The notes under the pieces were generated by a model that made no database searches, was not told the origin of the DNA, and worked only from the letters and a program-made list of their open reading frames with translations. Below are positions 1,147 through 19,315 of a stretch of 40,000 nucleotides of DNA, piece after piece (the stretch's first letter is position 1; the number at the start of each line of letters is the position of its first letter). This stretch comes from Colwellia sp. 12G3. Lineage in GTDB: Bacteria; Pseudomonadota; Gammaproteobacteria; Enterobacterales; Alteromonadaceae. The position numbers and the translations under genes are program-made. The stretch covers positions 21,350 through 61,349 of the forward strand of contig NZ_PJAQ01000043.1 in assembly GCF_002836775.1 (NCBI RefSeq), given 5' to 3'.

Positions 1147-1176
1147 GAGCAAAAAAATAAAAGAACAGGAAATAAC

Positions 1177-4845: not shown

Positions 4846-5640
4846 TTATAGGGTTATTTCGCCGACCATGTAATCAATAGCATTGCCGGTCAGGATAACT
4901 CTGTCTTTATTGAGTTTACAAAAAACCATACCGCTACGCATTGATAGTTGTTGTGCTGTTAACGTTTTCTTGTTGAGTTTTTCTGCCCAATATGGCGTTA
5001 GTTCGCAGTGAGCAGACCCCGTAATAGGGTCTTCATTAACTCTTAATTTAGGGAAAAAGCACCGACTAACAAAATCTACATCAGCATCATTTGCTGGCGC
5101 AGTAACAACAACGCCCCTTAAATCAATATTCAACCACAATGAAAGTTCGGGGGTTAACTCTTTAACTACTTCTTCACTATCAAGCACAATAATATAATCA
5201 AATGCTGACAAGACTTGTAATGGTCTTACTCCCCCTAAACCGTTAATCAAGTCAGTGGGAAGATTTGAATTTAATTCAATAGGCGCTGAAGCAGGGAAGT
5301 CCATGCTGTAGCCAGAACTTGTTTGGCTGACAATCAGCTTACCACTTTTAGTTTGGAAGTTTATTTGAGCTTTACTGTAGCCTAAATGCTTATATAACAC
5401 ATGGGCGCACGCTAACGTGGCATGACCACATAAATCTACTTCTTCTAATGGGGTAAACCAACGCAACTGAATATCATTGTCGCCATAGACAAAAAATGCA
5501 GTTTCCGATAAGTTATTTTCTTCAGCTATTTTTTGAAGAATGTCATCATCAAGCCAATCATTTAATGGAATTACAGCGGCAGGGTTTCCTTCAAAAGCCT
5601 TTGAGGCAAAGGCATCAACTTGATAAATTTGTAATTTCAT
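4846..5640 (-). CDS. PhzF-family isomerase
   Basis: 264 aa. The N-terminus MKLQIYQVDAFA...FEGNPAAV and the blocks ETAF, CGHATLA and TGSAHC are typical of the PhzF/YddE family. Confidence 0.85.
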   Translation of the reverse strand: MKLQIYQVDAFASKAFEGNPAAVIPLNDWLDDDILQKIAEENNLSETAFFVYGDNDIQLRWFTPLEEVDLCGHATLACAHVLYKHLGYSKAQINFQTKSGKLIVSQTSSGYSMDFPASAPIELNSNLPTDLINGLGGVRPLQVLSAFDYIIVLDSEEVVKELTPELSLWLNIDLRGVVVTAPANDADVDFVSRCFFPKLRVNEDPITGSAHCELTPYWAEKLNKKTLTAQQLSMRSGMVFCKLNKDRVILTGNAIDYMVGEITL

Positions 5641-5755
5641 GAGTTCCCTAGAGGATAATATAAAGTAAAGTCTACTGTGCTTATGAACAGACCAATGTTA
5701 TAGGCTGAACTGAGATAAAGGTAAAATATGGCTGTGCTAATAAGGCTGTAAAAAA

Positions 5756-6115
5756 TTACTCAAAAAACACCCAGATTCTTTTACTGGAATTTGAATAGGA
5801 ATATTTTAGTTCCAATAAGTGATTTGCTAAATCTACGGCATTTACATCCGTATTTCCCCAAGAACTTTCTTGAGACCAATGTTCAGCAATGATCTTTATT
5901 TTTTCGTCATCGATTATTGATAATGTTTCAGAAAAATTAACAGACAACAACCACAGGTTATCCGTTTGAGCAGAGCTACCACTTTTAAAACATTCAAGTA
6001 GTTCACTGATATTATCTTTAGTAAAACGACCACCTCCGAGAATTGAGTCATCAGGGATGTCATCAGAACTTTTGAAAGCGTTATCATCTACTTCTGTAAA
6101 GAAGGTTACATCCAT
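5756..6115 (-). CDS. Cassette 19 ORF: acidic hypothetical protein (119 aa)
   Basis: The ORF starts 19 nt after the R' end of attC-18, which is cassette-like placement. No family recognised, and no convincing attC of its own. Confidence 0.5.
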   Translation of the reverse strand: MDVTFFTEVDDNAFKSSDDIPDDSILGGGRFTKDNISELLECFKSGSSAQTDNLWLLSVNFSETLSIIDDEKIKIIAEHWSQESSWGNTDVNAVDLANHLLELKYSYSNSSKRIWVFFE

Positions 6116-6133
6116 AATCTATTCTCTATGTAT

Positions 6134-6211
6134 TTATAATGGCCAACGAACGGGCTAAGTAATAGTAGGCTAAAATATCGAAAACCAAGCGGTTTACAAC
6201 TCCCCGATACC
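6134..6211 (-). repeat. attC-18 (degenerate)
   Basis: tataatggccaacgaacgggctaagtaatagtaggctaaaat... aligns to the left half of the family consensus. The R' core is ATTATAA instead of GTTAT.., and the right half is weak (..cgatacc). Confidence 0.55.
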
Positions 6212-6449
6212 AGAGTCAGGAATAGCCGCTAAGATTAAATTCTGCTCACCATTCGACATAGTGCCAAAATGCTGAAGTGCAAAACTAGCTTTTTTACCAC
6301 TTAACTCAATTGTAACTAATTCAATAGCCGATAAGCCAATTTAATACCATGCTTTTAATCCGCATAAGGCTCAATTGGTTTCATTTGCAAGTCAAAATTT
6401 CCTGATGTTTTTATATCTCGCCTTTATTCGATGACACTATTTAAGAAAA

Positions 6450-6553
6450 GCCTAACACTCAACTAAACTAAGCGGATAAATATAGCATGGCTGAAATGCG
6501 GGAGGTACAAGCCACACCCCACTGTAATTTTCCATTTAACGTACTTGATACTT
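6450..6553 (-). repeat. attC-17
   Basis: gcctaacac..ctaagcgg..gccaca..actgtaattttccatttaacgtacttgatac matches the family, with TAAC on the left and G(T)ATAC on the right. Confidence 0.7.
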
Positions 6554-6640
6554 ATTGATCCTTCTCCCAAACGTCTAGGCTTTAGCTGAACATTAAGGCA
6601 ACCAAGCCAAAAGGGAAAACGTCCCACTTGCCTATCATAA

Positions 6641-7330
6641 TTAAATTCTTACACCATTTACAAAACTGCAATTAGGAAAGAAAGAATAACTATCTACGGG
6701 CTTAAGCTCAATAATATTTATTTCACTTACTTTATCCGATTGAATTTTTTGTTCTATTTCAAAGTAAAACCACCAACGTTCGTTAAATGATGTTAATTCG
6801 ATATAAGGATAACTTCTTATTTTCCAACTTCCTTTGAGATGATCTGTTCGGTCGTTCGTTTTGTTGGCAAAAGACAGTTGATAAGAATTATCTTTGTTTA
6901 AAAGAAGGTTAACTACAGTATCGCAATGTAGGCTTTCGTAATCATTAGCCAGATCTTGACTAGCCACTTTATCTTTTTGTTTAACTCCTTCTGGGAGTAA
7001 AAACAAACCAACACTATCTTTGCTATACCAATGATTTCCTGACACAAGCGCTTCTACATTAGGGATAAACCAACCTATATCAGAAAGTGAATTTATTAAT
7101 ATATCTAAAGTTTTTTCACCGTTAATAAAGGGAGAATAAAGCAGAGTTGATTGGTCAATTGTTTCTGGAAAAGAGAGTGTATTAGTAATAACTGTAAAGT
7201 TAGCTTCGTCCAGCTTTGAACTGATTTTTTTTATGTCAGTATCTGATAAATAACGGGTATATAAACGTACCTCTGTAGAAGAACAAGCAACAAGAAAAAG
7301 ACTAAGTATTACCACACTCAAAAATTTCAT
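6641..7330 (-). CDS. Cassette 17 ORF: putative lipoprotein (229 aa)
   Basis: Signal peptide with lipobox LVAC|SS. AGGGA lies upstream of the ATG. Starts 23 nt after attC-16 R'. Confidence 0.6.
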   Translation of the reverse strand: MKFLSVVILSLFLVACSSTEVRLYTRYLSDTDIKKISSKLDEANFTVITNTLSFPETIDQSTLLYSPFINGEKTLDILINSLSDIGWFIPNVEALVSGNHWYSKDSVGLFLLPEGVKQKDKVASQDLANDYESLHCDTVVNLLLNKDNSYQLSFANKTNDRTDHLKGSWKIRSYPYIELTSFNERWWFYFEIEQKIQSDKVSEINIIELKPVDSYSFFPNCSFVNGVRI

Positions 7331-7352
7331 TAAATCGGATCCCTACGAATAC

Positions 7353-7423
7353 ACCTAACGCCAAAATAAGTGACAAAGAAGAAAAACCAACTGTTTTTTG
7401 TCCTTTATAATGACTTTTTATAC
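7353..7423 (-). repeat. attC-16 (short form)
   Basis: acctaacgccaaaataagtgac...ccaactgttttttgtcctttataatgactttttatac. The R'' core is degenerate (TTTATAC). Confidence 0.65.
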
Positions 7424-7449
7424 GCCAACAGCTCCTGACTTACTAATAA

Positions 7450-7755
7450 TTAAAATTTTATTTTACCCACTACAATATCTTTAAACATTACCCAATCACC
7501 CATTAAGCTGTAAATTGGATAAACAAAAGTAGCGGGTCTATTTTTTTCAAATATAAAATGCCCCAGCCAAGCGAAACCGTAACCAATAACAGGTATAAAC
7601 CAAAGCAAAGAAAAATATCTAGAGATCACAACATAAGTCATTAATAAAATAATTAAACTAGAGCCTACAAAATGAAGTCGTCGGCAGATTTTATTTTCGT
7701 GCTGGCTTAAATAAAAAGGATAAAATTCCGAAAAATTTTTATATTGATTTATCAT
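7450..7755 (-). CDS. Cassette 16 ORF: DUF962 (Mpo1/YGL010w-like) membrane protein
   Basis: FSEFYPFYLSQHENKICRRLHFVGS is a typical DUF962 N-terminus, followed by TM helices. Confidence 0.65.
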   Translation of the reverse strand: MINQYKNFSEFYPFYLSQHENKICRRLHFVGSSLIILLMTYVVISRYFSLLWFIPVIGYGFAWLGHFIFEKNRPATFVYPIYSLMGDWVMFKDIVVGKIKF

Positions 7756-7801
7756 TTAATTATCTCTAAATTTTTATCAGTTGCCTATGATTGTAAGAGG
7801 C

Positions 7802-7895
7802 ATATAACACCTCAATCAAGAACTAAAAAATGTTTACTCTACGGTTGGAAAACTAAAAATCAATCTGTTTTTAGTCCCGTTTGGTTGGCTTATTA
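7802..7895 (-). repeat. attC-15
   Basis: Left end atataac and right end cttatta, the same variant as attC-2. It overlaps the cassette 15 stop codon. The internal sequence is diverged. Confidence 0.6.
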
Positions 7896-8225
7896 TACGT
7901 CATAGTTAGCATCAACAAGTTCACCAATATTAAACTCTGAAATGATATTCTGGTCTTTCAACCAATTAGATATGCTTGATATGTCTGATTCAGTAACTGA
8001 ACCATAGCGTTCAATAGAAGAAATAAATCCTGCAAAGGAAGTCAGATCTCCACCACCGCCAATACGCAACTTTAGAGTTTCAACATAAAGAAAAAAGTCA
8101 TCCATTATTGTTGCTAATTCAGACTCATCCTTACACGTTAAATTACAATCTAACTCAACTCCCATTACAGCAAATTCATCTAAATAAAGCTTTTTTCTTA
8201 ATCGAAGAGATTTTCGAGTGTGCAT
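7893..8225 (-). CDS. Cassette 15 ORF: YggL-like (DUF469) protein
   Basis: MHTRKSLRLRKKLYLDEF matches the E. coli YggL N-terminus (..RSRRLRKKMHIDEF, recalled). Start moved to ATG 8225 (AAGGA upstream) because the track start at 8252 lies inside the attC. Confidence 0.7.
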   Translation of the reverse strand: MHTRKSLRLRKKLYLDEFAVMGVELDCNLTCKDESELATIMDDFFLYVETLKLRIGGGGDLTSFAGFISSIERYGSVTESDISSISNWLKDQNIISEFNIGELVDANYDV

Positions 8226-8237
8226 AATTTTTCCTTG

Positions 8238-8474
8238 GTATATACGCCTCAATAAGAGGCTAAAAAATGTTGGCTAAAATACTTTGCTCAGAAGCGAGTA
8301 AAATAGCATGAAGTTTGTACGTTAGTAAATATTGCTCATAATGACGCTTTATTGTATGTCCGACAAGTCACCCCTTTAGTGACAATTAATTAAATAACAA
8401 TCCAGCAAAGTGAGACAAGATCAAAGCGAAACCGAGCCAACTTTTAGCAGTACTGCTTGAAATATTGGTTATGC
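8238..8474 (-). repeat. attC-14: composite or expanded attC region (237 bp)
   Basis: Family left half at 8238-8300 (tatacgcctcaataagaggc..gttggctaaaat..gaagcga). Family right half at 8421-8474 (aagcgaaaccgagccaact..ggttatg). About 120 bp of unrelated sequence lies between them. Confidence 0.6.
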
Positions 8475-8484
8475 CGAATGTCAC

Positions 8485-9060
8485 TTATTTAGGCTTTTCC
8501 TCACGAACAAGCATTGTCATGTATTTTGTAAATCGCCGTTGTCTGGTTTCAGCTTTCTTTGCACTTGTTAAGCCATAAGCGATAACATAACGACTCGATT
8601 TATTAAGTGTTTCAAAAAACTGTTTTACTCTTGGCTGATTTTCCAACGCAGTTAAGAAATCTTCGGGCACTTTCATTTCACTTACCACGTAGGCGTTTCC
8701 CCAACGACCATCGGCTTTCGCTGCACGAACATGAACAAACCCTGATTCCTTCATCCGTTCTTCGCTTATCAAACGTTCAACATGCTCAGTGTTTCTTTTA
8801 GACCAGTTGCTTCGTACTTTTCTGGGTGTTATGCGCTGAAGATAGGCTTGGTCATCAATTGACTTTTTTACGCCATCAATCCAGCCCCAGCATAAAATTT
8901 CTATGACTACATCATTCCAAGTAACACTTTGAACCCCTGTGTTTTTCTTAAATATCTTTACCCACAACTCACTTTCAGTGGCATGATTTACCTTAAGCCA
9001 CTTGCAGAGATCTTTTGGAGTTACAAATGTCATGATTCTCAATGGATCGGGTTCAGGCAT
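8485..9060 (-). CDS. Cassette 14 ORF: YdeI/OmpD-associated family protein
   Basis: Contains W..WL..NH....LWVKI.KK, LCWGWIDG and RITPRK..S.WSKRN blocks. The start is uncertain (ATG 9060 or 9033); the track start at 9093 lies in the attC. Confidence 0.7.
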   Translation of the reverse strand: MPEPDPLRIMTFVTPKDLCKWLKVNHATESELWVKIFKKNTGVQSVTWNDVVIEILCWGWIDGVKKSIDDQAYLQRITPRKVRSNWSKRNTEHVERLISEERMKESGFVHVRAAKADGRWGNAYVVSEMKVPEDFLTALENQPRVKQFFETLNKSSRYVIAYGLTSAKKAETRQRRFTKYMTMLVREEKPK

Positions 9061-9078
9061 CGAATTAGACTTTCTTGG

Positions 9079-9180
9079 TAATAGCGCCCACATTAAGGGG
9101 ACAAAAATTGTTGGTTATAATGTGAAGCGAGCGGAACTTAACCAACTTGCTTCAAGTTCCGTTTAAATTGCTTATTAGGT
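9079..9180 (-). repeat. attC-13
   Basis: gtaatagcgcccacattaagggg..gttggttataat..gaagcgagcggaacttaaccaact..gtttaaattgcttattaggt. Both core sites are slightly degenerate. Confidence 0.6.
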
Positions 9181-9192
9181 TTCTCCTACTAC

Positions 9193-9552
9193 TCAGAATG
9201 CGCTTTTCCATTGTTCAGTATCGATAAACCAGCGCTCCTCATAGATTTTTTCATCGTCAAACTTGAATAGAACTGACAGCTGAGAAGCCGTAATCTTATC
9301 GGATTTCCATTCAACGATCGAGACAACTTCTCGTTCCCCCTCTATTTGTCTAAGTTCCGTAATTTCGAAACCAGGAGGAAGGATTAAATCAAGACCATTC
9401 AAAGCAGAGCGAAACTCCTGTCGCCCTTCCAAAATATTGACTTGGCCGGGCATAATGAATTTCATTTCTTCAACATAATCTTTAACTAAGACATCAAAGT
9501 CACCTGTGCCAACAGCTTCCCATCCACGCTGTACTATGTCAGCTAATTTCAT
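9193..9552 (-). CDS. Cassette 13 ORF: SnoaL/NTF2-like fold protein (119 aa)
   Basis: The N-terminus MKLADIVQRGWEAVGTGDFD.L..Y.. is typical of small SnoaL-like domain proteins. Confidence 0.6.
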   Translation of the reverse strand: MKLADIVQRGWEAVGTGDFDVLVKDYVEEMKFIMPGQVNILEGRQEFRSALNGLDLILPPGFEITELRQIEGEREVVSIVEWKSDKITASQLSVLFKFDDEKIYEERWFIDTEQWKSAF

Positions 9553-9623
9553 TGTATATTCTCCTAAAGTAATTGATACAAATTAACTATAGAAGGTATC
9601 CACTAATTGTGAGAGGCAGTGAA

Positions 9624-9686
9624 TCATAATACTTACATAAGCGGAACCTAACCAACTGTTTGTTTTGTTTGAAGTGCTTGTTATGT
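9624..9686 (-). repeat. attC-12 (short form, mutated R')
   Basis: tcataatacttacataagcggaacctaaccaactgtttgttttgtttgaagtgcttgttatgt. R'' is a good ACATAAC, but R' reads ATTATGA (A at the crossover G). Confidence 0.55.
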
Positions 9687-9687
9687 G

Positions 9688-9978
9688 TTATTCCACCGAA
9701 GTCAGACCAAAGCCTGATCTACAGATGATTAAGAATAAAAGCACAAATATAATACCCATAGAGAATAAAATACCCTCTAGAAATAAGCTTGCACCAAAAA
9801 CTAAAAATGTTGACCAACAGAGTGTAATAGCTAAATTACTAAGCCTAAACCGGCAATTGCAAGAGTGACAGCAAAACACGCGAGGAGATAAAGAATACCA
9901 CGGCAAATTCTTTAAATTATTACGAAGATCCTTGTCACATACCCAAGCCTTACAATTTAGGCATTTTGCAATGTTCAT
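9688..9978 (-). CDS. Cassette 12 ORF: small zinc-ribbon (CxxC..CxxC) membrane protein
   Basis: MNIAKCLNCKAW...CCHSCNC followed by 2 TM helices. Start moved to ATG 9978 (AAGGA upstream); the track start lies in attC-11. Confidence 0.5.
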   Translation of the reverse strand: MNIAKCLNCKAWVCDKDLRNNLKNLPWYSLSPRVFCCHSCNCRFRLSNLAITLCWSTFLVFGASLFLEGILFSMGIIFVLLFLIICRSGFGLTSVE

Positions 9979-9993
9979 ACAATATCCTTTTGC

Positions 9994-10089
9994 ACATAAC
10001 GCCACTAAGAGGCGAAAAGTAGTGAGTTAAAATAGCGACGAAGGAGTAAAAAAAACACTATATTTGTCCTTTTTAACCGCTTGTTAGAA
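9994..10089 (-). repeat. attC-11
   Basis: acataacgccactaagaggcg...tttgtcctttttaaccgcttgttagaa. Full family match, and R'' abuts the stop of cassette 11. Confidence 0.8.
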
Positions 10090-10584
10090 CTATTTCTTAA
10101 TTAGTTCATCATTCATGTTTTTACCCCCTAAGAAATCCTCTCTAGGAGTATAATTAATCCAATCTGTTTGCTTTATAATTTTATTCTGGGAATTAAACTC
10201 TTGATAAATTATAAACAACCACGGGCCCATCCTTTGTCCATCAAAGATAAACTCATGAAAAAAACCTTGTGTTACAACCGTATTTCCATCTTGAATTTGT
10301 TTTGTAATGGTTAAAATTTGCCCACCTGAAAGAGCCGTAAATTCGCCTTTATCCCAGGCTAAGAATTCTTTAATCTCTCTTTTTGTTTTTAAACTATTTC
10401 CATAGATAATATCTTCAAATTGGGCATTATCATCATAGAAAGACATTAAGAGATTAAAATCATTACGTTGTGAGTATACGTTAAAGTAGTCCACAACAAT
10501 TTGAGACATTTCATTGTTATTTATACTTTTAGAAGCACACCCACTAAATAGAAGAATTATTAAGGCAATTAAAATATTACGCAT
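10090..10584 (-). CDS. Cassette 11 ORF: lipoprotein with an NTF2/SnoaL-like domain
   Basis: MRNILIALIILLFSGC|AS is a lipobox. YFNVYSQRNDF..LMSFYDDNAQFED is SnoaL-like. Start at ATG 10584 is preferred over GTG 10599. Confidence 0.6.
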   Translation of the reverse strand: MRNILIALIILLFSGCASKSINNNEMSQIVVDYFNVYSQRNDFNLLMSFYDDNAQFEDIIYGNSLKTKREIKEFLAWDKGEFTALSGGQILTITKQIQDGNTVVTQGFFHEFIFDGQRMGPWLFIIYQEFNSQNKIIKQTDWINYTPREDFLGGKNMNDELIKK

Positions 10585-10605
10585 ATCTGGAGAATTCACC
10601 CATAG

Positions 10606-10699
10606 TGATAACGCCTAAATAAGAGGCTTTTTATAGTTTGCTAAAATTGTGGAGCGAAGCAGAACCTAGAAAACTGTATTTTTCCGTTCAATGTTCTTT
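10606..10699 (-). repeat. attC-10
   Basis: tgataacgcctaaataagaggc..tagtttgctaaaat..gaagcagaac..tttccgttcaatgttcttt. Confidence 0.75.
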
Positions 10700-11170
10700 T
10701 TATGTGCTTAGTGCACACTCCATTTTAATTGATTCTAGAACTACTCCATTTCGAGTAGTAAAGTTACTTTTGCTTTGTTCAACGAATCCATTTCGCAAAT
10801 AAAAATTTGCAGCATTAAGCGATGAGTCTACTTTAAGGATTTTAATGCCTGCTTTATTAGCTTTTATAAATAGAAATTCAATCATTTTTTGACCAATTCC
10901 TTTTCCTACGCAATCAGGTGAGACAAACAATGAAAGCAAAAGTTGCTTTTCTATATTTAGCTCACCAAAACAGACAACTCTATTTTCCAATACCTTGACA
11001 TATTGTACACAGCCATTATTCGCGCTTTGTACAAACCGTTCAGGATTGGCTTCTCCTACCCAGTCCAAAACTGTCTTACTATCATAATCTCTTATACAAA
11101 GAGCTTCTGCTGAAGATCTAAAAACAGAATCCATATCTGTGTAATCTGATTTGTGAGCAACTCGAATCAT
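10700..11170 (-). CDS. Cassette 10 ORF: GNAT family N-acetyltransferase
   Basis: Has the acetyl-CoA binding block V.P...GKGIGQKMIEF and NA.NFY.RNGF. Confidence 0.8.
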   Translation of the reverse strand: MIRVAHKSDYTDMDSVFRSSAEALCIRDYDSKTVLDWVGEANPERFVQSANNGCVQYVKVLENRVVCFGELNIEKQLLLSLFVSPDCVGKGIGQKMIEFLFIKANKAGIKILKVDSSLNAANFYLRNGFVEQSKSNFTTRNGVVLESIKMECALST

Positions 11171-11190
11171 AAATACAGTCCTCTAAAAGC

Positions 11191-11289
11191 ACATAACATT
11201 TTGCTAAGGAGCAAATTGTAGTTGACTAGAATAAGCGACGTAGGAGCAAAAGCCAACTGTATTTTGTCCTCATTTAACAGCGGTTAGGT
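11191..11289 (-). repeat. attC-9
   Basis: acataacattttgctaaggagc...agccaactgtattttgtcctcatttaacagcggttaggt. The stop codon of cassette 9 lies inside R''. Confidence 0.8.
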
Positions 11290-12369
11290 TTTCTCTATTA
11301 CTTTATTGTCTAAGTACTTTTCAGGAGTTAACAAGAAGGTAGAGAATAAATTTACGGCTTGTTCAAGTTGCTCTTTTATACGCTTAGGGAATACTTGCTC
11401 AATCGTATCCAACCGATCAAATTTAGAATGTAAAATAATACCCCAACGATTTTCAGTTTCTCGATCACAAGCACCTTGAGATGAGGAGTCGAAGCAATCC
11501 CAAAAAGCAGGATGATTTGTTTGAGACAATCCATCAAACCCATACAACCCATTAATTGAAAAATTAGTAGACTCTAAAAATACAATTGGTATTCCTGCAC
11601 AAGAAAAAGGGAAATGATCTGACCAAGGACCCGTTTCACCCTTTGGGTATTCCTTAGATTTAGGATGTTCAACAAATTGAATACTCTTGTTAATAGACTC
11701 TGATGTTTTAATAATAGCTTTACGTAAAATAGGCTCTCCATTGTAAATAGAATCAGACTTACCACATGGATATGGCGTTGAAAGCGCGCTGTGAACATAC
11801 ATTTTATCGCCTCCAGCAATCATATCAAAATTAATCATGCCAGCTATATTTTGCAATGCTGTTGGAGTTAACTGCTTCACATAATATTGTGAGCCTGATA
11901 TCCCTATTTCTTCTGCTCCAAATGCAATAAAACGTATATTGAAATGTCTAGATGGACTTTTAGAAATAATCTGGGCAATCTCGAGCATAGCTGCAACACC
12001 TGTCCCATTATCTATTGCTCCATATGAACCTTCGCCTTTAGAGTCGTAATGAGCACCAAGAATAATAGTCGGTAAATCATTACTTCCTAATTCAGCAATT
12101 ATATTGTTTGACTTAAAATATTGCTCTTTATTTTTAAACTCAAAAGGTTGAACCTTTACCTTAAAGCCAAGTTCTCTAAGTGTGTTAGATATAAATTTAG
12201 AAGTATTCATTTCCTCTACAGATCCTGAAGTTCTAACCCCAATGCCTTCATTAACAGAGACCAATTGCTGCAAATATGAATAAGCATCTTTTTCATTAGC
12301 AAAAACAGAGGTCGTACAGCAACACAAAAGTATTATATTTGCTATTTGAGATATTCGGTTTTGAAACAC
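11284..12369 (-). CDS. Cassette 9 ORF: M28 family zinc aminopeptidase (secreted)
   Basis: N-terminal signal peptide. M28 metal-ligand blocks are present: GAHYDS, DNGTGVAAMLE, FGAEEIG. GTG start with AAGGA upstream. Confidence 0.85.
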   Translation of the reverse strand: MFQNRISQIANIILLCCCTTSVFANEKDAYSYLQQLVSVNEGIGVRTSGSVEEMNTSKFISNTLRELGFKVKVQPFEFKNKEQYFKSNNIIAELGSNDLPTIILGAHYDSKGEGSYGAIDNGTGVAAMLEIAQIISKSPSRHFNIRFIAFGAEEIGISGSQYYVKQLTPTALQNIAGMINFDMIAGGDKMYVHSALSTPYPCGKSDSIYNGEPILRKAIIKTSESINKSIQFVEHPKSKEYPKGETGPWSDHFPFSCAGIPIVFLESTNFSINGLYGFDGLSQTNHPAFWDCFDSSSQGACDRETENRWGIILHSKFDRLDTIEQVFPKRIKEQLEQAVNLFSTFLLTPEKYLDNKVIEKT

Positions 12370-12424
12370 TTTTTTAATCCTTTTTAAAGAGTATTAACAC
12401 AATATTCGATTGATAGAGTTAGAA

Positions 12425-12469
12425 ACCTAACGCCCTGTTAGCAGTTGTCCGTTTGAAGCCTTGTTAGCT
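12425..12469 (-). repeat. attC-8 (very short, about 45 bp)
   Basis: acctaacgccctgttagcagttgtccgtttgaagccttgttagct. R' and R'' are good (GTTAGGT / AGCTAAC) but the middle is minimal. The cassette 8 stop lies inside R''. Confidence 0.5.
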
Positions 12470-13118
12470 TTGATGGCTCATAAGCATTGCCATACCTAGC
12501 CAAGAGAACCATAATATTTGGCCTAAGCCAAATATTTCTGTCAGTATTTCAGCAGGATAAATAGTGAGAATACCAACAGTACCAATAAATAGACCGAAAC
12601 AATTTAGCAATTTAGGTAATTCAATAATTTTTAAGCCTGCAACACTTAATAAAAGAACCCATAACCCTCCTACAACTTCGTTACCTCCCCCTAAACCTTC
12701 AACTATTGTATTAATAACGATCCAAAGAGTCATTGCTTGCTCTGCGTTTTTGGCAGACAAATCGATTACAGCAGCTAATCCTACATTTGCAATCATTCCA
12801 CTTGCTATGACAAGGCCAACCCAAATAATACCGAAGACCGAAGCAGTTTGTGATAAAACAGGGGCTTTGGTTTTCATTCGTTGATGGATCGCTAAAACTA
12901 ATACCGCCAAAAAAAGACCAAAGGCGACATACATAGTTAAGTTAACTATCGATAAAATCACTTGATTATTAGTTAGAAAAATAAATTTATGTGTATCATC
13001 CGCACTGACAGGGTAATCCCAAAACGCTCCAAAACGCTCCAAAAAAAACAAAAGCTGATATGTAAATAATGGCCTCAAAAAGTGCTGCAACGCCACCTAT
13101 TTTTTGTAATTTATTCAA
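12464..13118 (-). pseudogene. Cassette 8: multi-TM membrane protein (DUF4386-like) frameshifted by a 10-bp tandem duplication
   Basis: AAAACGCTCC occurs twice in tandem (13021-13040). The upstream frame TTG 13118..TGA 12996 encodes NKLQKIGGVAALFEAIIYISAFVFFGAFW. Deleting one repeat copy fuses it in frame to ..DYPVSADDTHKF.. of the 12464-13096 ORF. Confidence 0.65.
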
Positions 13119-13192
13119 GACTCTACCCTTGATTATAAAAATTTTAAGTTAACATAAAAGAATAGTTGTTAACGACTTCAATATGTAACAAA

Positions 13193-13290
13193 AGCTAACG
13201 CCCTAATAAGGGGCTTTTTTAGTTTGCTAAAATGTTGAACGAAGTGAAACCGAGCAAACTGTAAAAAGTCTCACTTGAGTAGCTTGTATG
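13193..13290 (-). repeat. attC-7
   Basis: agctaacgccctaataagggg..agtttgctaaaat..gaagtgaaaccgagcaaactgt..cttgtatg. Confidence 0.75.
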
Positions 13291-13311
13291 GATAAATTGC
13301 TGATATACCGA

Positions 13312-13557
13312 CTATAAAAAACTAAGAAGTAATAGTAAACCTATAATTCCCGAACCAAATAATAGGTATTTACCAAAGGTAGAATTATCTTCGAGAGTTT
13401 CTTGATGCTGCGCTTGTAATTGAGCCAACTGTGATTCATTTAAATCAGAGCAATGAATACATTTATCGCTTGCTTCCGGTGTATATAATTCACATCTATC
13501 ACAGCGTTTTTGTTTCGGCTGCTTAGCTTTCATTGCTAGACTCATTCCTACAGACAT
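13312..13557 (-). CDS. Cassette 7 ORF: small zinc-ribbon protein with a C-terminal TM helix
   Basis: CDRC...CIHC followed by a glutamine-rich linker and GIIGLLLLLSFL. Start moved to ATG 13557 (AAGGA upstream) because 13596 lies inside attC-6. Confidence 0.5.
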   Translation of the reverse strand: MSVGMSLAMKAKQPKQKRCDRCELYTPEASDKCIHCSDLNESQLAQLQAQHQETLEDNSTFGKYLLFGSGIIGLLLLLSFL

Positions 13558-13572
13558 TGTGAAATCCTTTAC

Positions 13573-13628
13573 ACATAACGCCTCGTTAAGAGGCAAATAA
13601 TTTGTCCTGCTTTAACGACTTGTTAGGT
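13573..13628 (-). repeat. attC-6 (short form, 56 bp)
   Basis: acataacgcctcgttaagaggcaaataatttgtcctgctttaacgacttgttaggt. CGTTAAGAGG pairs with CCTGCTTTAACG with bulged bases. Confidence 0.8.
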
Positions 13629-13645
13629 ATGCCGAATTCATATAC

Positions 13646-14089
13646 TTAACTCAATACTCTGATTTGGTTTATTGAATTTACTCTAATATGAGTTTGAAAA
13701 TAATATTTTTCAGTTCTCTTACCATTTGAAATAAACCAAATTTTCATTTGTTTGGCTTTACCAGTAACTTCGATATTTTTATTAATGAAATATGCTTCTG
13801 GCGAAGAGCCATATTTTTTTGTAAACGCTGCGATTGTTTTAGGGTGGAGTGCTACCGTAATACTTCTTCTATCTCTGTAATCTAATTCAGTGTTTAAATA
13901 GACAACTTTTCTCTCTACACCTGATGCTTTTATTGAAAATTGAAAAGTACCTCTTATACCATCTGGTGCATTTAGTTCTGTTTGTTCAATTAAACGCATC
14001 ACATCAGTTGAGGGTTGATTTGAAGTTACGTCAGACGTTGTTGTACATGCAGATAAAACTAAAATTGATAATAATATTAAATACTTCAT
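13646..14089 (-). CDS. Cassette 6 ORF: putative lipoprotein (147 aa)
   Basis: Lipobox LSAC|TT, with AAGGA upstream of the ATG. No family recognised. Confidence 0.6.
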   Translation of the reverse strand: MKYLILLSILVLSACTTTSDVTSNQPSTDVMRLIEQTELNAPDGIRGTFQFSIKASGVERKVVYLNTELDYRDRRSITVALHPKTIAAFTKKYGSSPEAYFINKNIEVTGKAKQMKIWFISNGKRTEKYYFQTHIRVNSINQIRVLS

Positions 14090-14112
14090 TGAGATGACAT
14101 CCTTGTTTGTAT

Positions 14113-14213
14113 ACCTAACGCCGCAATAAGCGGAAAATTATAGTTGGCTAAAATGTTTGAGGAACGAAAAACAGCCAACTGTAAATTTTGTCCTTTTAAA
14201 CTACTTGTTATAT
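14113..14213 (-). repeat. attC-5
   Basis: acctaacgccgcaataagcgg..agttggctaaaat..acagccaactgtaaattttgtccttttaaactacttgttatat. This is a near-consensus member. Confidence 0.85.
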
Positions 14214-14221
14214 GCACAACA

Positions 14222-14422
14222 CTAAGATTTAGCAGGTTTTATTTTTACACGTTTGAATGCAATAAATAAAACATCTACTACTGTGATCAGTATGATAATC
14301 GAACAAATAAAGTTTATTGAATCTAAATTAACGCTAGATAGATTAGGTTCAAATAAATTTGTAAATGCTAAAACAAGCATTGGAATGATAAACGATATTC
14401 CAATTATATATTTCATTTTCAT
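14222..14422 (-). CDS. Cassette 5 ORF: small two-TM membrane protein (66 aa)
   Basis: Hydrophobic ORF with GGAG upstream of the ATG. Confidence 0.45.
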   Translation of the reverse strand: MKMKYIIGISFIIPMLVLAFTNLFEPNLSSVNLDSINFICSIIILITVVDVLFIAFKRVKIKPAKS

Positions 14423-14432
14423 ATACGACTCC

Positions 14433-14500
14433 TATTACTCTCAAGTTAGAATTAGTCACCAAATCAGAGGTGCATTTTTCCGCTTGAAGAGCTTGTTATA
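14433..14500 (-). repeat. attC-4 (short, degenerate R')
   Basis: On the minus strand R'' is ATATAAC. L'' CTCT(T)CAAG pairs with L' CTTGAGAG, leaving one bulged T. R' reads GTAATAG instead of GTTATAT. Confidence 0.5.
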
Positions 14501-14503
14501 TTA

Positions 14504-14728
14504 CTATTGATACCAAACACTTACGACGACTGTTGCAGGCATCCATGAACCACCACTTTGTGATTGAGTGATATTTTTAATTTCCACATCTGGCTTTGAA
14601 GCGAGCCAAAGATTGATTTCAGCTTCTAAACCACAATCAGATGATGATGTTGAACTAGGCCAAAAACCTTGCTTAGGCTTAATGATTTTTGTGAATATTT
14701 TAACTTCCATTTTAGAAATATACTCCAT
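14504..14728 (-). CDS. Cassette 4 ORF: hypothetical 74-aa soluble protein
   Basis: ORF placed between attC-3 and attC-4. No family recognised. Confidence 0.45.
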   Translation of the reverse strand: MEYISKMEVKIFTKIIKPKQGFWPSSTSSSDCGLEAEINLWLASKPDVEIKNITQSQSGGSWMPATVVVSVWYQ

Positions 14729-14740
14729 GTTGATTTAGTA

Positions 14741-14843
14741 ATATAACGCCCAAATAATGGGCTAAGCAATGGTTGGCTAAAATTGTGTAGCGAAGCGAAA
14801 CGTAGCCAACTGTTACGTTTCCTTGTTGATTTTCTTGTTAAAT
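14741..14843 (-). repeat. attC-3
   Basis: atataacgcccaaataatgggc..ggttggctaaaat..gaagcgaaacgtagccaactgt..tttcttgttaaat. Confidence 0.85.
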
Positions 14844-14849
14844 CTCGTT

Positions 14850-15356
14850 TTATAAAGCCACTTGATATATATCTATTTCGAACCCACGAAATACAGAAGA
14901 TTTAATAAATTGAAAGCCTGTTCTGTTTACGACTTTAACAGAGCTAACATTATCCGATTCTATTAGTGCGTGTACCGCGTTAAGATTTAAGGATTTTTTA
15001 GCAAAGTCTAAAATCCCATTTGTTGATTCAACAGCATAACCTTTACCTTGTTGGTCAGTGGTAAGGCGATAGTTAATATGTATAACATCTTCAGAGTTCA
15101 AGTTGTGTTTATTAAGACCGCACACCCCAACAAACTCATCAGTAACAGAGTTAAAAATTGCCCAATGCCCATAGCCATTTAAGTCATACTGTTTTTTGCA
15201 GTTAGCTATATAATCATGGATTTGTTCTTCTGTGTGAACACCTACAGTTGAGTATTGCATTACTACAGGATCAGCTAACACTTTTGATAGGTTTTTAGCA
15301 TCCTCATTCGTAATTTGACGAATACATAACCTTTCAGTTTCAACAATAATCAACAC
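14850..15356 (-). CDS. Cassette 3 ORF: GNAT (RimJ/RimL-like) N-acetyltransferase
   Basis: Has ETERLCIRQ.T.ED (a typical RimL-type N-terminus), QGKGYA and N..S..V..R.GF blocks. Confidence 0.8.
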   Translation of the reverse strand: MLIIVETERLCIRQITNEDAKNLSKVLADPVVMQYSTVGVHTEEQIHDYIANCKKQYDLNGYGHWAIFNSVTDEFVGVCGLNKHNLNSEDVIHINYRLTTDQQGKGYAVESTNGILDFAKKSLNLNAVHALIESDNVSSVKVVNRTGFQFIKSSVFRGFEIDIYQVAL

Positions 15357-15368
15357 AAACTCCTAGAG

Positions 15369-15466
15369 ATATAACGCCCTCGTTAATGGGCAAAATATTG
15401 TTGGCTAAAATAGTTGAGGAACGAAACACAGCCAACAATATTTTGTCCTGATTTAACAGCTTATTA
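15369..15466 (-). repeat. attC-2
   Basis: atataacgccctcgttaatgggc..gttggctaaaat..acagccaacaatattttgtcctgatttaacagcttatta. Confidence 0.85.
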
Positions 15467-15471
15467 TAAGT

Positions 15472-15726
15472 TTAATTAACTACACAAGAACAAGCTATTT
15501 CGCCGTCTTGAACCCACTCTCTGTAGCCTGAACCACATTTCATTTTATAATGATTACAAGTTGCCTCGTTACCATAAGCAGTACTATTTCCAGTAACCGT
15601 TGTAGTTATAACGCCATCAATAATTTCGCCCGCAGACCAAGGTTTAATATCTAAAGCAGTACAACCAGAGAGAAAGGTAATAGAAAATACGAGTAGAATG
15701 AAATATGTTTTATTCCCAGCAACCAT
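15472..15726 (-). CDS. Cassette 2 ORF: small Cys-rich lipoprotein (84 aa)
   Basis: Lipobox LSGC|TA, with four further Cys in the C-terminal third. Confidence 0.55.
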   Translation of the reverse strand: MVAGNKTYFILLVFSITFLSGCTALDIKPWSAGEIIDGVITTTVTGNSTAYGNEATCNHYKMKCGSGYREWVQDGEIACSCVVN

Positions 15727-15750
15727 TTTAATACTCCAATACTTAGAAAC

Positions 15751-15835
15751 TTATAACGCTTTGATAAGCGGGAAAAACTTGTTGGCTAAAATTGTGAACG
15801 GAGTGAAAAAGCCAACTGTTTTTTTTCTTGTTATG
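15751..15835 (-). repeat. attC-1
   Basis: ttataacgctttgataagcggg..gttggctaaaat..aaagccaactgtttttttttcttgttatgt. Confidence 0.85.
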
Positions 15836-15839
15836 TAAT

Positions 15840-16043
15840 TTACTGCTGCGGTGTTTCTTTATTTTTGAGAGGAGCTAAAAGCATATAGAATATCCAAGCA
15901 AACCAAGACACAAAGACTACTAATAACAACCAAGCCAATTTTTCACCACCACGAGTTTTTGATGAACTTAAAATTAAAACTACGGGTAAAACCCAAACTA
16001 AGAAAAATATTATCAAGATTGAAAAAATCCCTATACCACCCAT
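15840..16043 (-). CDS. Cassette 1 ORF: small PLDc_N-type two-TM membrane protein (67 aa)
   Basis: The pattern KLAWLLLVVFVSWFAWIFYMLLAP is typical of the PLD-nuclease N-terminal (PF13396-like) small membrane proteins. GGAG lies upstream of the ATG. It is the first cassette after attI. Confidence 0.6.
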   Translation of the reverse strand: MGGIGIFSILIIFFLVWVLPVVLILSSSKTRGGEKLAWLLLVVFVSWFAWIFYMLLAPLKNKETPQQ

Positions 16044-16066
16044 ATTGCTACTCCATTTATTTAATT

Positions 16067-16090
16067 ACATAACAATTTATTATGAGGAAA
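16067..16090 (-). other. attI core (simple site) with the attI x attC junction
   Basis: + strand ACATAAC (16067-16073) has the same R-box sequence as attC-6, attC-9 and attC-11. AATTT and an imperfect inverted copy ATTATGA follow. The site lies between cassette 1 and intI. Confidence 0.55.
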
Positions 16091-16093
16091 GCC

Positions 16094-16246
16094 CCTTGTT
16101 TCTACAAGATGGGATTAATCGTCCATAATTTTATAATGTTAGGAGGTTACTCGATTGTTACTGATAGATCAATCAGTTAAAAACATTGCTCAAACTGGTA
16201 GATGTGTGAAAGGAGGGGATTTGCGCGCTTTCTTGTAGAAAGAAGG
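16094..16246. repeat. 15-bp inverted repeat pair in the attI / intI-promoter region
   Basis: CCTTGTTTCTACAAG (16094-16108) versus CTTGTAGAAAGAAGG (16232-16246) gives 14/15 complementary positions. The right copy overlaps the putative PintI -35. Confidence 0.6.
16144..16172 (-). promoter_or_regulatory. Candidate cassette promoter (Pc)
   Basis: The minus strand reads TTGATC-17 nt-TAACCT, pointing into attI and the array. This rests on the sequence pattern only. Confidence 0.25.
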
Positions 16247-16260
16247 ATTTATGTTAAGCT
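16233..16260 (+). promoter_or_regulatory. Candidate intI promoter (PintI)
   Basis: TTGTAG-16 nt-TAAGCT with an extended -10 TGn. The LexA box overlaps the -10 and start region. Confidence 0.4.
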
Positions 16261-16274
16261 GTATGTATATACAG
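16259..16274 (+). promoter_or_regulatory. LexA (SOS) box
   Basis: CTGTATGTATATACAG is a perfect CTGT-N8-ACAG match with an AT-rich core. It lies 17 nt upstream of the intI ATG. Confidence 0.8.
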
Positions 16275-16290
16275 TTGGCAAGAGGTTTTT

Positions 16291-17256
16291 ATGTCTTCGC
16301 CATTTTTACAGTCTATTGCAGAACAAATGCGTTTAAAGCGTTATGCCAAAAGAACGATAGAAAGCTATGTTTATTGGATAAAGGCGTTTATAAATTTTAA
16401 TGGTCAGCGTCACCCAATAAAGTGTCATGATGCTGAAGTAGAAAATTTTTTGTCTCATTTAACTAACAAACTCAATGTTGCACCTAGAACCCAAGGTGTG
16501 GCATTAAATGCTTTAGTATTTTTGTATCGGGGGATCTTATTAAAACCTTTAACTCTCGAACTTAATTTTAATAAATCTAAACAACAAACTAAGTTACCTG
16601 TCGTGTTAACTCAAGCAGAGATCATCGCGTTATTAGCCAAAATATCAAATAACTATAGTTTGCCTTGTAAATTAATGTACGGAAGTGGGTTGCGTTTAAT
16701 GGAGGTTGTTCGCTTAAGGGTACAAGACATTGATTTTGACTTTCATGCTATTCAGGTATGGCAAGGTAAGGGTGGTAAAAACCGGCGTGTTACGTTAGCA
16801 AAAGAGTTATGTAATTCGTTAAAATCTCAAATAGCGTTAGCGCAGTATTATTATCAACAAGACCAATACAATCCAAACTATAAAGGCGTATGGCTACCTT
16901 ATGCTTTAGCGAGAAAGCATCCTAATGCGAGCAAAGATATGCTGTGGCATTATCTTTTCCCTTCGAGTCGGTTAAGTAGAGATCCTGAAACAGGTTTTGT
17001 TCGTCGACATCATATTGATGAAACAACATTAAGAAAATCAGTGAAAATGGCTGCACTGAATGCGGACATAGCAAAAAATGTGACTTGTCATACGTTACGA
17101 CATTCATTTGCCACACATTTATTACAACGAGGTGCCGATATTAGAACCGTGCAGGAGCAGTTGGGACATACTGATATTCGTACAACGCAAATATACACTC
17201 ATGTAATTGAACATGGCGCAAACGGTGTGCGAAGTCCTTTATCTGACTTACTTTAA
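16291..17256 (+). CDS. intI: Integron integrase IntI (tyrosine recombinase), apparently intact
   Basis: 321 aa. Motifs present: YAKRTIESY, LPVVLT, GSGLRLME, RLRVQDIDF, WQGKGGKNRRVTLAKEL, CHTLRHSFATHLL, GADIRTVQEQLGHTD and TTQIYTHV (catalytic Tyr). The IntI-specific extra domain is also present (WLPYALARKHPNA...WHYLFPS...RRHH; compare IntI1 LPDALERKYPRA, recalled). Confidence 0.95.
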   Translation: MSSPFLQSIAEQMRLKRYAKRTIESYVYWIKAFINFNGQRHPIKCHDAEVENFLSHLTNKLNVAPRTQGVALNALVFLYRGILLKPLTLELNFNKSKQQTKLPVVLTQAEIIALLAKISNNYSLPCKLMYGSGLRLMEVVRLRVQDIDFDFHAIQVWQGKGGKNRRVTLAKELCNSLKSQIALAQYYYQQDQYNPNYKGVWLPYALARKHPNASKDMLWHYLFPSSRLSRDPETGFVRRHHIDETTLRKSVKMAALNADIAKNVTCHTLRHSFATHLLQRGADIRTVQEQLGHTDIRTTQIYTHVIEHGANGVRSPLSDLL

Positions 17257-17372: not shown

Positions 17373-17801
17373 CTAGGCTTTCTTAGTTGTTATGTAGTCA
17401 TTAACTAAATCGGCTAAAACGTTAAGTGGTACTGGACCATTTTTTAATACTACGTCATGAAACTCACGAATATCAAACTTATCGCCTAACTGAACTTTGG
17501 CATGTTCACGTAATTCAATGATTTTGTTCATACCAATTTTGTAAGCTGTCGCTTGTGACGGCATTACCACGTGACGCTCTACCATTTTTACTGCATCAGA
17601 CATGGCATTAGGCGTATTTGTAGCGTAGTACTCTATACCTTGCTTACTAGTCCATTGTTTAGAGTGAATACCTGTATCAACCACTAAACGACATGCACGC
17701 CATAATTCCATTGCTAAGCGACCAAAGTCAGAATAGGGGTCTTGGTATAAGCCAATCTCTTTAGGGATCATCTCTGAATAGAGTCCCCAACCCTCAGTCT
17801 G
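17373..17801 (-). pseudogene. DUF885-family protein, C-terminal fragment (gene split by an insertion)
   Basis: ..TEGWGLYSEMIPKEIGLYQDPYSDFGRLAMELWRACRLVVDTGIHSKQWT.. continues the sequence that ends at ..FGGYTAHTE in the 19316-20755 fragment. The first 19 codons of the 161-aa track ORF come from the inserted DNA. Confidence 0.8.
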
Positions 17802-17970
17802 GGTCTGTATATACATACGCATAATTGATGAGGTTTTTGTAAGTGGTTCTAAGATCACTTTGTGCGCTTAGCGGAAGTTAACCATGACATTCACATTACT
17901 TCCGCTTCTTTAGCTATGAGTTGACCTTAATGGCGTCGTTGAAAAGTCTAGGTAATACTACACTGCGGAC

Positions 17971-18720: not shown

Positions 18721-18960
18721 ACTATTTACTATGCCTATTACAAACTTATTGTATTGATTATAATACGTTATCTATTTTCGATTAAACATCTGAATTTTAA
18801 TCTTTCAAATACAGATAAAGAGGTAATAATTTGAATTCAATGTCTAATTTTCGCACTGGCAAGACATAAGGACTAATTATCAAAATGACTATATTCGTAT
18901 CAAAGTGATCGTTAGATGGGATGAATTTCACTCGTAAATTTAGACCGCTTTGTGGCCAGC

Positions 18961-19110
18961 CTGTGTGAAAACTATTTTTAACTTTCGTAATAGAATAATA
19001 TCAACGAAAAAAGGCGCTGTAGATTAAATTCTGTAGTACGTTTGATAACAAACCACCTGTTAATTTACGTAGCGTCGCATAAAAAAATTACGCAGGGAGT
19101 TTTCACACAT
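18961..19110. repeat. 13-bp inverted repeats bounding a 124-bp hairpin-rich AT-rich segment
   Basis: CTGTGTGAAAACT (18961-18973) versus AGTTTTCACACAT (19098-19110) gives 12/13 complementary positions. Internal stems include CCTGCGTAATTT/AAATTAACAGG, GTTTG/CAAAC and TTTCGT/ACGAAA. Confidence 0.6.
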
Positions 19111-19315
19111 AGATGGCATGAGTGATCTAATTTTCTGATCGTTATTCTCGAGCATTATGTGTAGTCAAAAGTATGTAAATTAATGTTCAGCCTTTTACGT
19201 GTACGACAAAGACAAAAACTGGGTAACGGTTTAATTGGTTGTTGGAGAGGGGGATCTTTAGTGACCTACGCGTAAGGCGAAGTCTCTGGTAAGTATTGTG
19301 TATATATTTCGAGGC

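Follow-up and report, generated by a model that had tools for sequence, protein, structure and literature searches.

The question raised by a 40,000-nucleotide (nt) stretch of the Colwellia sp. 12G3 genome (contig NZ_PJAQ01000043.1, positions 21,350 to 61,349; hereafter the window, with positions counted from its first letter) is whether the recombinase gene, repeats, and small genes that it carries make up a complete integron and, if so, whether that integron is a long-standing resident of the chromosome. In the window, an integrase gene (intI) diverges from an attI junction and from 10.4 kb of arrayed minus-strand cassettes (Table 1). All three elements of a complete integron (intI, attI junction, and attC-bounded cassettes) are therefore present in the canonical layout, in agreement with an initial annotation of this DNA that described a complete integron with intI facing away from attI and array. 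The preferred interpretation, to which a probability of roughly 0.93 is assigned, is that the locus is a chromosomal integron, complete and of the type found in marine gammaproteobacteria, with that of Vibrio as a close counterpart. It belongs to a well-known class, of which it is a typical, partly decayed member, and is of known kind given that RefSeq already annotates the integrase, naming WP_101232877.1 'integron integrase'. Four window proteins (the integrase, the M28 and 229-aa cassette proteins, and PhzF) match proteins of Colwellia sp. 12G3 exactly. The G+C content of the window is 31-43%, and Rfam and tRNA scans over its whole length returned no matches.

The product of intI matches the NCBIfam model TIGR02249 'integron integrase' over its full length at 464 bits (cut-off, 265), while its score is far under the XerC and XerD cut-offs. 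Alignment to VchIntIA, proposed as a check in the initial annotation, is gapless over IntI residues 1-319 (E 1.6e-125); the structure used, PDB 2A3V, is that of the V. cholerae integrase solved with folded attC. Because the alignment stays gapless, including through residues 186-230, the IntI-specific insertion is concluded to be present and residue positions transfer directly to IntI. The catalytic positions R135, K160, H267, R270, H293, and Y302 are all retained, as are W157, W219, P232, H240, and H241; the numbering, and the role of the latter five residues as contacts of extrahelical bases, are taken to be those of MacDonald et al. in 2006. The stretch YYYQQDQYNPNYKGVWLPYALARKHPNASKDMLWHYLFPS in IntI matches the IntI-specific additional domain (Messier and Roy, 2001, as cited in PMC4792948). 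Consistent with such an insertion, the 166 profile positions of Pfam Phage_integrase are spread over 200 IntI residues, approximately 35 of them extra. The TIGR02249 score and the gapless alignment bear out the integron-specific extra domain that had been noted earlier. IntI shares 54-62% identity (tblastn) with the integrases of Vibrio species, falls outside classes 1-5, and has its nearest relatives among Colwelliaceae, followed by Vibrio.

For comparison, 80 loci encoding IntI relatives were examined (designated by L and a number). In an alignment of 11 Colwelliaceae loci (A6), the intI-proximal sequence is conserved up to ...ATAAC (plus strand) and then stops, where differing first cassettes begin. 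Because conservation among the 11 loci ends exactly there, we infer that the attI crossover lies between G16073 and T16072 of GTTATGT. The operator-like sequence between attI and intI, CTGTATGTATATACAG, is a perfect CTGT-N8-ACAG (for the LexA box consensus, see Cambray et al., 2011; PMC3108266), and, of 74 related loci, 48 have an exact CTGT-N8-ACAG 24-56 nt upstream of intI, far above chance. LexA control of integron integrases is established, and LexA boxes at the corresponding place control intI of V. cholerae and of class 1 integrons (PMC3108266). Control of the Colwellia intI by the SOS response (LexA) is thus well predicted; of the SOS control asserted in the initial annotation, the perfect box and its recurrence at the same place stand, and the control itself is a prediction.

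Two further features of the upstream sequences should be noted. The attI-intI intergenic region is flanked by a 16-nt inverted repeat (CCTTGTTTCTACAAGA at 16094-16109 and TCTTGTAGAAAGAAGG at 16231-16246; arms 94% complementary and separated by 121 nt), which most Colwellia loci retain; both of its arms are altered in L008 and L015, where the changes do not compensate. Accessory IntI sites or sites for a regulator are possibilities for its function. A second CTGT-N8-ACAG (CTGTGCTTATGAACAG, 5675-5690) lies 35 nt upstream of the start codon of the PhzF gene. As a second LexA box it was rejected: at least two matches occur in 6 of 100 shuffles of the window, and the site, because it is not conserved in L082 or L084, is probably a chance match.

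On the cassette (minus) strand, 18 attC-like sites were located, with sizes of 45-105 base pairs (bp) plus a composite site of 238 bp (attC14), in agreement with the copy number and sizes first reported. The repeat, which follows nearly every ORF, has the form ...(A/C)(C/A)TAAC-AAG-(L'')-GGACAAAAT-ACAGTTGGC-(loop)-GCCAAC-...-GCCyCTTAnnGrGGC-GTTAT..., its two ends being the cores RYYYAAC and GTTRRRY. For the nine long window attCs, a single-hairpin structure was derived from their alignment (A3) by dynamic programming: pairing holds in 79% of cells (36-49% with a slid partner), both members change in 13 of 32 pairs, and none of 500 shuffles attained the covariation score. Covariation on alignments was preferred to the folding of single sites because local hairpins of the L' box compete with the long-range fold; minimum-free-energy folds of single attCs yielded z-scores of -6.1 to +1.1 relative to shuffles. 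Mean column identity among the nine long sites is 69%, which is the value that corresponds to the term homogeneous in the initial annotation.

A covariance model built from nine window sites (R1), run over all 40 kb with filters off, recovered 13 sites at E<0.05, all of them on the plus strand, which is the cassettes' bottom strand, in the interval 7354-15840, and nothing comparable elsewhere. For a second model (R2), sites of other genomes alone were used, the best 150; it recovered 11 sites in the window at E<=1.2e-6 and a further 2 marginally, and these 13 again all lie on the plus strand (7354-15835). The best off-array match of R2 in the window scored 16.3 bits (E 0.065). Both models accordingly find attC sites between 6.1 and 15.9 kb, the interval in which the initial annotation had placed the repeats. 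The alignment of these 150 sites, itself fitted to the model, has 94% paired cells, double-sided changes at 22 of its 32 pairs, and an invariant R box (TAACG...TGTTA). In the family consensus of the 150 sites, three positions of the bottom strand are left unpaired, all of them on the 3' ('') arm rather than the 5' arm, matching the extrahelical-base asymmetry described for attC (PMC4792948). The best off-array match of both models (15.7-16.8 bits, both strands) is at 28545-28638, an AT-rich palindrome between an endonuclease III-like gene and the first gene of the rnf cluster; this is probably a bidirectional terminator-like hairpin and not an attC.

Individual sites vary in quality. Of the 18 attC-like sites, 13 retain the G/TT crossover triplet, and five degraded sites (attC04, attC08, attC14, cand17, and cand18) are unsupported by the models. 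In total, 11-13 attCs are robust and 5 are decayed; because several are dead, the array is less pristine than had been implied. The loop of attC14 carries an insert of approximately 140 nt (8285-8425) with short terminal inverted repeats (CTTTGCTC / CAGCAAAG), and a 78% identical insert is found in an attC of Colwellia sp. BRX10-3 (L039:1-170), where it adjoins an unrelated open reading frame (ORF). Either attCs with long loops form a subfamily, or the insert is a small element whose target is the attC loop.

Cassette units were bounded by R' positions, which gives 18 inter-site intervals of 309-1234 bp followed by a terminal 19th cassette, in keeping with the approximately 19 cassettes initially proposed. 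Each unit has one minus-strand ORF, as had been described, with the exception of 6141-6462; this 322-bp unit has no ORF of at least 30 amino acids (aa) on either strand and is either a non-coding cassette or what remains of such a cassette. In four cassettes the stop codon overlaps R'', and in the others it lies 2-40 nt before it; the Shine-Dalgarno sequence is AAGGA in approximately five cassettes and GGAG or AGGAG in most others. Functions could be assigned to two GNAT acetyltransferases, an M28 peptidase, two SnoaL-like proteins, and YdeI/OmdA, YggL, and Mpo1-like proteins. A total of 10 of the 18 cassette ORFs had no Pfam match at cut-off, no NCBIfam match above cut-off, and no PADLOC match, upholding the view that the cargo is mostly undescribed; anti-phage defence was considered for these 10 unassigned ORFs and rejected given the negative PADLOC result. 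No cassette reached the cut-off of an NCBIfam resistance family (the best, AAC(6')-Ie, scored 19.7 bits against a cut-off of 340), in line with the classical resistance genes earlier reported as lacking, and no toxin-antitoxin cassettes were detected by Pfam.

Two side observations concern individual cassettes. In cassette 8, a 10-bp sequence (GGAGCGTTTT) is duplicated in tandem at 13021-13040, which shifts the reading frame of the membrane-protein gene; deletion of one GGAGCGTTTT copy yields a continuous 214-aa frame from TTG 13118, the product of which matched no Pfam family. The frameshift reflects either a pseudogene or an assembly error. In addition, GNAT and M28 genes adjoin each other both outside the integron (20926-22955) and within it (10700-12369). 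Derivation of cassettes 9 and 10 from the outside genes was considered and rejected; because the proteins share only 31-33% identity over short motifs, the pairing is regarded as coincidental at the family level.

Table 1. Coordinates of the integron and of neighbouring genes in the 40,000-nt window of Colwellia sp. 12G3, listed from intI towards the distal end of the array.
Feature	Positions	Strand	Description
intI	16291-17256	plus	Integron integrase, 321 aa; TIGR02249; RefSeq WP_101232877.1
LexA-box-like operator	16259-16274		CTGTATGTATATACAG; 17 nt upstream of intI ATG
attI core	16067-16110	minus	R box GTTATGT (16067-16073) plus conserved TAATAAAyTGTTAT and GAGG block
Cassette 1	15757-16072	minus	ORF 15840-16043, 67 aa, small membrane protein, weak PLDc_N match; attC01
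attC01	15750-15836		R2 42.5 bits, E 3.9e-9
Cassette 2	15375-15756	minus	ORF 15472-15726, 84 aa, lipoprotein-like, no family; attC02
attC02	15368-15469		R2 87.2 bits, E 1.8e-21
Cassette 3	14747-15374	minus	ORF 14850-15356, 168 aa, GNAT (Acetyltransf_3 E 4e-29); attC03
attC03	14740-14844		R2 74.9 bits
Cassettes 4 and 5	14119-14746	minus	ORFs 14504-14728 (74 aa) and 14222-14422 (66 aa); attC04 between, attC05 closing
attC04, decayed short palindrome	14429-14503		R' GTAAT; missed by R1 and R2; fold z-score -1.4
attC05	14112-14214		R2 65.5 bits
Cassette 6	13579-14118	minus	ORF 13646-14089, 147 aa, lipoprotein; attC06
attC06, short	13572-13630		R2 50.6 bits, E 2e-11
Cassette 7	13199-13578	minus	ORF 13312-13557, 81 aa; attC07
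attC07	13192-13292		R2 74.8 bits
Cassette 8	12431-13198	minus	Membrane-protein gene 12464-13118, frameshifted; attC08
attC08, short	12424-12471		45-bp minimal site; R2 14.3 bits, E 0.24
Cassette 9	11197-12430	minus	ORF 11284-12369, 361 aa, M28 metallopeptidase (Peptidase_M28 E 8e-33); attC09
attC09	11190-11291		R2 51.3 bits
Cassette 10	10612-11196	minus	ORF 10700-11170, 156 aa, GNAT acetyltransferase; attC10
attC10	10605-10707		R2 43.4 bits
Cassette 11	10000-10611	minus	ORF 10090-10599, 169 aa, SnoaL-like lipoprotein; attC11
attC11	9993-10092		R2 42.0 bits
Cassette 12	9641-9999	minus	ORF 9688-10005 (probable start 9978); attC12
attC12, short	9625-9685		R' CTTAT; R2 18.9 bits, E 0.012 (marginal)
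Cassette 13	9085-9640	minus	ORF 9193-9552, 119 aa, SnoaL_2; attC13
attC13	9078-9182		R' GCTAT; R2 45.8 bits
Cassette 14	8245-9084	minus	ORF 8485-9093, 202 aa, YdeI/OmdA; attC14
attC14, composite	8238-8475		R' GTAT; both arms align to family consensus; missed by R1 and R2
Cassette 15	7808-8244	minus	ORF 7893-8252 (probable start 8225), YggL_50S_bp E 3e-24; attC15
attC15	7801-7900		R2 33.5 bits, E 1.2e-6
Cassette 16	7359-7807	minus	ORF 7450-7755, 101 aa, Mpo1-like/DUF962 (Pfam E 4e-40); attC16
attC16, short	7352-7426		R2 18.5 bits, E 0.016 (marginal)
Cassette 17	6463-7358	minus	ORF 6641-7330, 229 aa, orphan lipoprotein; cand17
cand17, divergent attC	6457-6550		R1 15.1 bits, R2 10.6 bits; 77% identical to an L005 site scoring 68 bits
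Cassette 18	6141-6462	minus	Non-coding; ends in cand18
cand18, half attC (R'/L' arm only)	6135-6176		R' CATTAT; by alignment only
Terminal fossil cassette	5641-6140	minus	ORF 5756-6115, 119 aa; no recognisable attC after it; then PhzF
PhzF gene, resident	4846-5640	cassette strand	Adjoins distal array end
pfaD	1138-2775		ORF
pfaC 3' end	28-960		ORF, FabA-domain

Within the 80 related loci, R1 finds 303 attC sites at E<=0.001. Among the matches listed, all are on the intI strand, and they are upstream of intI wherever coordinates were compared; the loci with R1 sites include Colwellia, Thalassotalea, Pseudocolwellia, Litorilituus, Cognaticolwellia, Thalassomonas, Psychromonas, and Endozoicomonas. 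The same model also detects, at lower scores, the approximately 124-nt repeats of Vibrio cassette arrays. On the integrase side, intI is followed by a convergent DUF885 gene in 12 related loci of several genera, with a GNAT gene beyond it in 7 of the 12. On the distal side, the order cassettes, attC, 119-aa ORF, PhzF, CxxCxxCC, pfaD, and pfaC is found in three loci (L082, L083, and L084), which come from two close relatives. L082 and L083 carry the same PhzF protein, which is 94% identical to that of the window (88% for L084), and all three have in common both the 119-aa ORF-PhzF arrangement and the mutated R', at 84-92% nucleotide identity. Nucleotide homology that extends from the distal flank ends at 6176 in L082 and at exactly 6141, the R' position, in L084; beyond these points the arrays differ. 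Because attCs lie on both sides of the 119-aa ORF in Endozoicomonas L036, and the L051 locus also has a homologue, the terminal unit is a true cassette that has become frozen here.

Comparison of the array with those of related genomes, likewise suggested in the initial annotation, revealed that, beyond the conserved distal end and a small number of common cassettes, the content varies between relatives. Among the 18 cassette ORFs, homologues in other arrays were found only for those of cassettes 1, 6, 7, and 17 and for the terminal 119-aa ORF: the cassette 6 gene occurs in L049 (89%), L084 (78%), and L031 (66%), cassette 7 has a partial homologue in L047, and the cassette 17 ORF has a 49% homologue in the L012 array. 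Matches to the M28 cassette by tblastn are distant paralogues outside arrays. Collectively, these features describe a platform passed on vertically, whose proximal array changes fast and whose distal end is a fossil. It should be noted that L082 also harbors a PhzF-family paralogue, 43% identical to the window protein, as an attC-bracketed cassette (L082:7956-9509); because this paralogue is a bona fide cassette, the window PhzF gene, which is on the cassette strand, might itself be an ancient fixed cassette. More distant PhzF orthologues (L085) are in unrelated contexts.

The mechanism proposed for this locus is drawn by analogy from established integron biology, which also supplies the presumed integrase activity, LexA binding, and cassette promoter. 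As a tyrosine recombinase, IntI would recombine the folded bottom strand of attC (here the plus strand) with attI at G16073/TT, thereby inserting cassettes beside the integrase, or would excise cassettes that lie between two attCs. LexA bound to the box upstream of the start codon is predicted to repress intI, and because of this predicted repression, cassette shuffling would be switched on by DNA damage. The platform itself is old and vertically inherited at one chromosomal site, with DUF885 on the intI side and PhzF and pfaD distally, and the distal part of the array has fossilised, with approximately a quarter of the attCs devoid of the crossover triplet.

Several observations weigh against a complete and operating integron. 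A consensus promoter scan of 15900-16500 revealed no site on the cassette strand, and the promoter-like sites in the attI-intI region, 2 on the plus strand, compare with 2.8 expected from shuffles. The models R1 and R2 both derive, directly or indirectly, from the window repeats. The G/TT triplet is mutated in 5 of the 18 sites (attC04, attC12, attC13, attC14, and cand18), attC01 is without approximately 14 nt of its L'' arm, and the at most 18 attC-like sites, 13 of them supported by covariance models, fall under a published threshold for sedentary integrons of more than 19 (Cury et al., 2016; PMC4889954). Lastly, L082, a TARA Colwellia scaffold that keeps attI, the LexA box (ACTGTGTATAAATACAGT), and an array of approximately 7 kb with the same distal end, has a radical-SAM gene right after the operator in place of intI (L082:2700-3200). 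Because this close relative lost intI, the platform can decay in this lineage.

These observations raise the possibility of a fossil integron, in which the layout is real but shuffling has ceased, the array is decaying, and the integrase is kept by chance or for another role. The mutated R' triplets, the truncation of attC01, the interruption of attC14, and the frameshifted cassette gene would all be expected of such a relic, as would the loss of intI from a close relative and a terminal cassette with a dead R' that became frozen before the divergence of three genomes. However, IntI has its full length and retains all catalytic and base-binding positions, the LexA box is maintained across the clade, and G/TT is kept at 13 sites. 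Moreover, only cassette 6 and the terminal 119-aa ORF are common to the window and to genomes whose flanking genes are 84-94% identical, which indicates cassette turnover since these lineages diverged. A fossil is thus considered unlikely, if still the most credible of the alternatives to a complete chromosomal integron.

Far less probable is a mobile integron, or an island recently acquired on a transposon or plasmid. The array is short (approximately 10 kb) with fewer than 20 attCs and, by the size criterion of Cury et al. (2016) taken alone, is not sedentary; their second criterion, presence in 100% of the genomes of a species, can be approached here only by a surrogate, since the species is represented by one genome: the intI-DUF885 junction is found in 12 loci, and one close relative is without intI. 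In contrast, no transposition or conjugation genes were found within the 40 kb window, and the flanks consist of housekeeping genes (pfaC/D, rnf, nusA, and rimP) on a contig of 340 kb (339,961 bp). The genes pfaC and pfaD lie 2.9 kb from the array end, which corroborates the polyunsaturated fatty acid synthase cluster reported next to the array. The same intI-DUF885 junction in loci of several genera, an attC family that is clade-wide, and an IntI outside classes 1-5 likewise argue against mobility. In general usage, a sedentary integron is chromosomal, off any mobile element, and equipped with homogeneous attCs and cargo mostly of unknown function, all of which was found here. The housekeeping flanks, the intI-DUF885-GNAT synteny, and the occurrence of the attC family upstream of intI across Colwelliaceae therefore support a sedentary chromosomal nature, as opposed to that of a mobile resistance integron, much as the initial annotation had argued. 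That the repeats are merely intergenic palindromes (of the REP or terminator type) near a Xer-like recombinase can be set aside almost entirely: single-site folds are often little better than shuffles, but the recombinase passes the integron-specific model and not the XerC/XerD cut-offs, the repeats have conserved RYYYAAC and GTTRRRY ends, are strand-specific, occur on one side of intI only, and delimit single ORFs, and a model built from them also detects the repeats of Vibrio arrays.

The junction of the chromosomal integron with its flank has a peculiarity of its own. The DUF885 gene, which is intact in the 12 related loci, is split in Colwellia sp. 12G3 only, by an insert of approximately 1.5 kb (about 17805-19318) that lies 0.55 kb beyond the 3' end of intI; the C-terminal piece of the gene is at 17373-17858 and the N-terminal piece at 19316-20755. 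The insert carries an orphan ORF of 249 aa (17971-18720, minus strand) with a 600-nt non-coding leader, and this ORF has one homologue among 5.8 billion proteins. One end of the insert, GCGTATGTATATACAG, has 14 nt identical to the LexA box of intI, and its junctions form an imperfect 10-nt repeat (CATACTGAAG / CAGACTGAGG). An ectopic cassette was considered and rejected: the insert has no R1, R2, or Rfam match, its 3' end folds with a z-score of -0.48, it has only a 15-nt motif in common with attC12 and attC13, and the sole homologue of its ORF is in a non-integron context. A capture of genes away from the array and without attC, tied to the integrase or to the SOS response, is considered quite improbable; if true, the insert would represent a non-canonical route of gene acquisition by the neighbourhood of an integron.

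Among known systems, the Colwellia integron is most readily compared with the superintegron of V. cholerae, with which it has in common the divergent intI/attI layout, a LexA box just upstream of intI, an integrase that aligns without gaps (2A3V), a single homogeneous attC family, and mostly unknown cargo. The R'/L' end of the window attCs (GCCyCTTAnnGrGGC-GTTAT) also resembles that of the V. cholerae repeats. Unlike the V. cholerae superintegron, with roughly 180 cassettes in approximately 126 kb, the Colwellia array is far smaller, with approximately 18 cassettes in 10.4 kb, its attCs are approximately 100 nt long rather than approximately 124 nt, with several decayed, it occupies a different chromosomal site, and it has no toxin-antitoxin cassettes by Pfam. 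The integrons of Alteromonadales and Shewanella (SonIntIA and SamIntIA) are similarly chromosomal in marine gammaproteobacterial hosts, with small to medium arrays and a taxon-specific attC family; yet in pairwise comparison the window IntI is nearer to Vibrio-type integrases than an affiliation with Shewanella suggests. Taxon-specific attC families are established and include an Alteromonadales attC model (Ghaly et al., 2021; PMC8352920). With class 1 mobile resistance integrons the Colwellia integron shares the recombination logic of IntI, attI, and attC, and LexA control is reported there (PMC3108266), whereas it is without the Tn402, sul1, and qacEdelta1 context and without resistance cassettes, its attCs are homogeneous rather than heterogeneous, and its chromosomal site is fixed.

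In the literature that could be searched, no description of Colwellia integrons was found. The locus leaves the knowledge of how integrons work unchanged, and its use is that of a catalogue entry and a source of cassettes for functional screens. It provides a documented and dissected example of a chromosomal integron for the Colwelliaceae, a family of cold-adapted marine bacteria, and shows that one attC family and one chromosomal site are common to several genera, that the LexA box is maintained clade-wide, and that more than half of the cassettes encode proteins without a known family.

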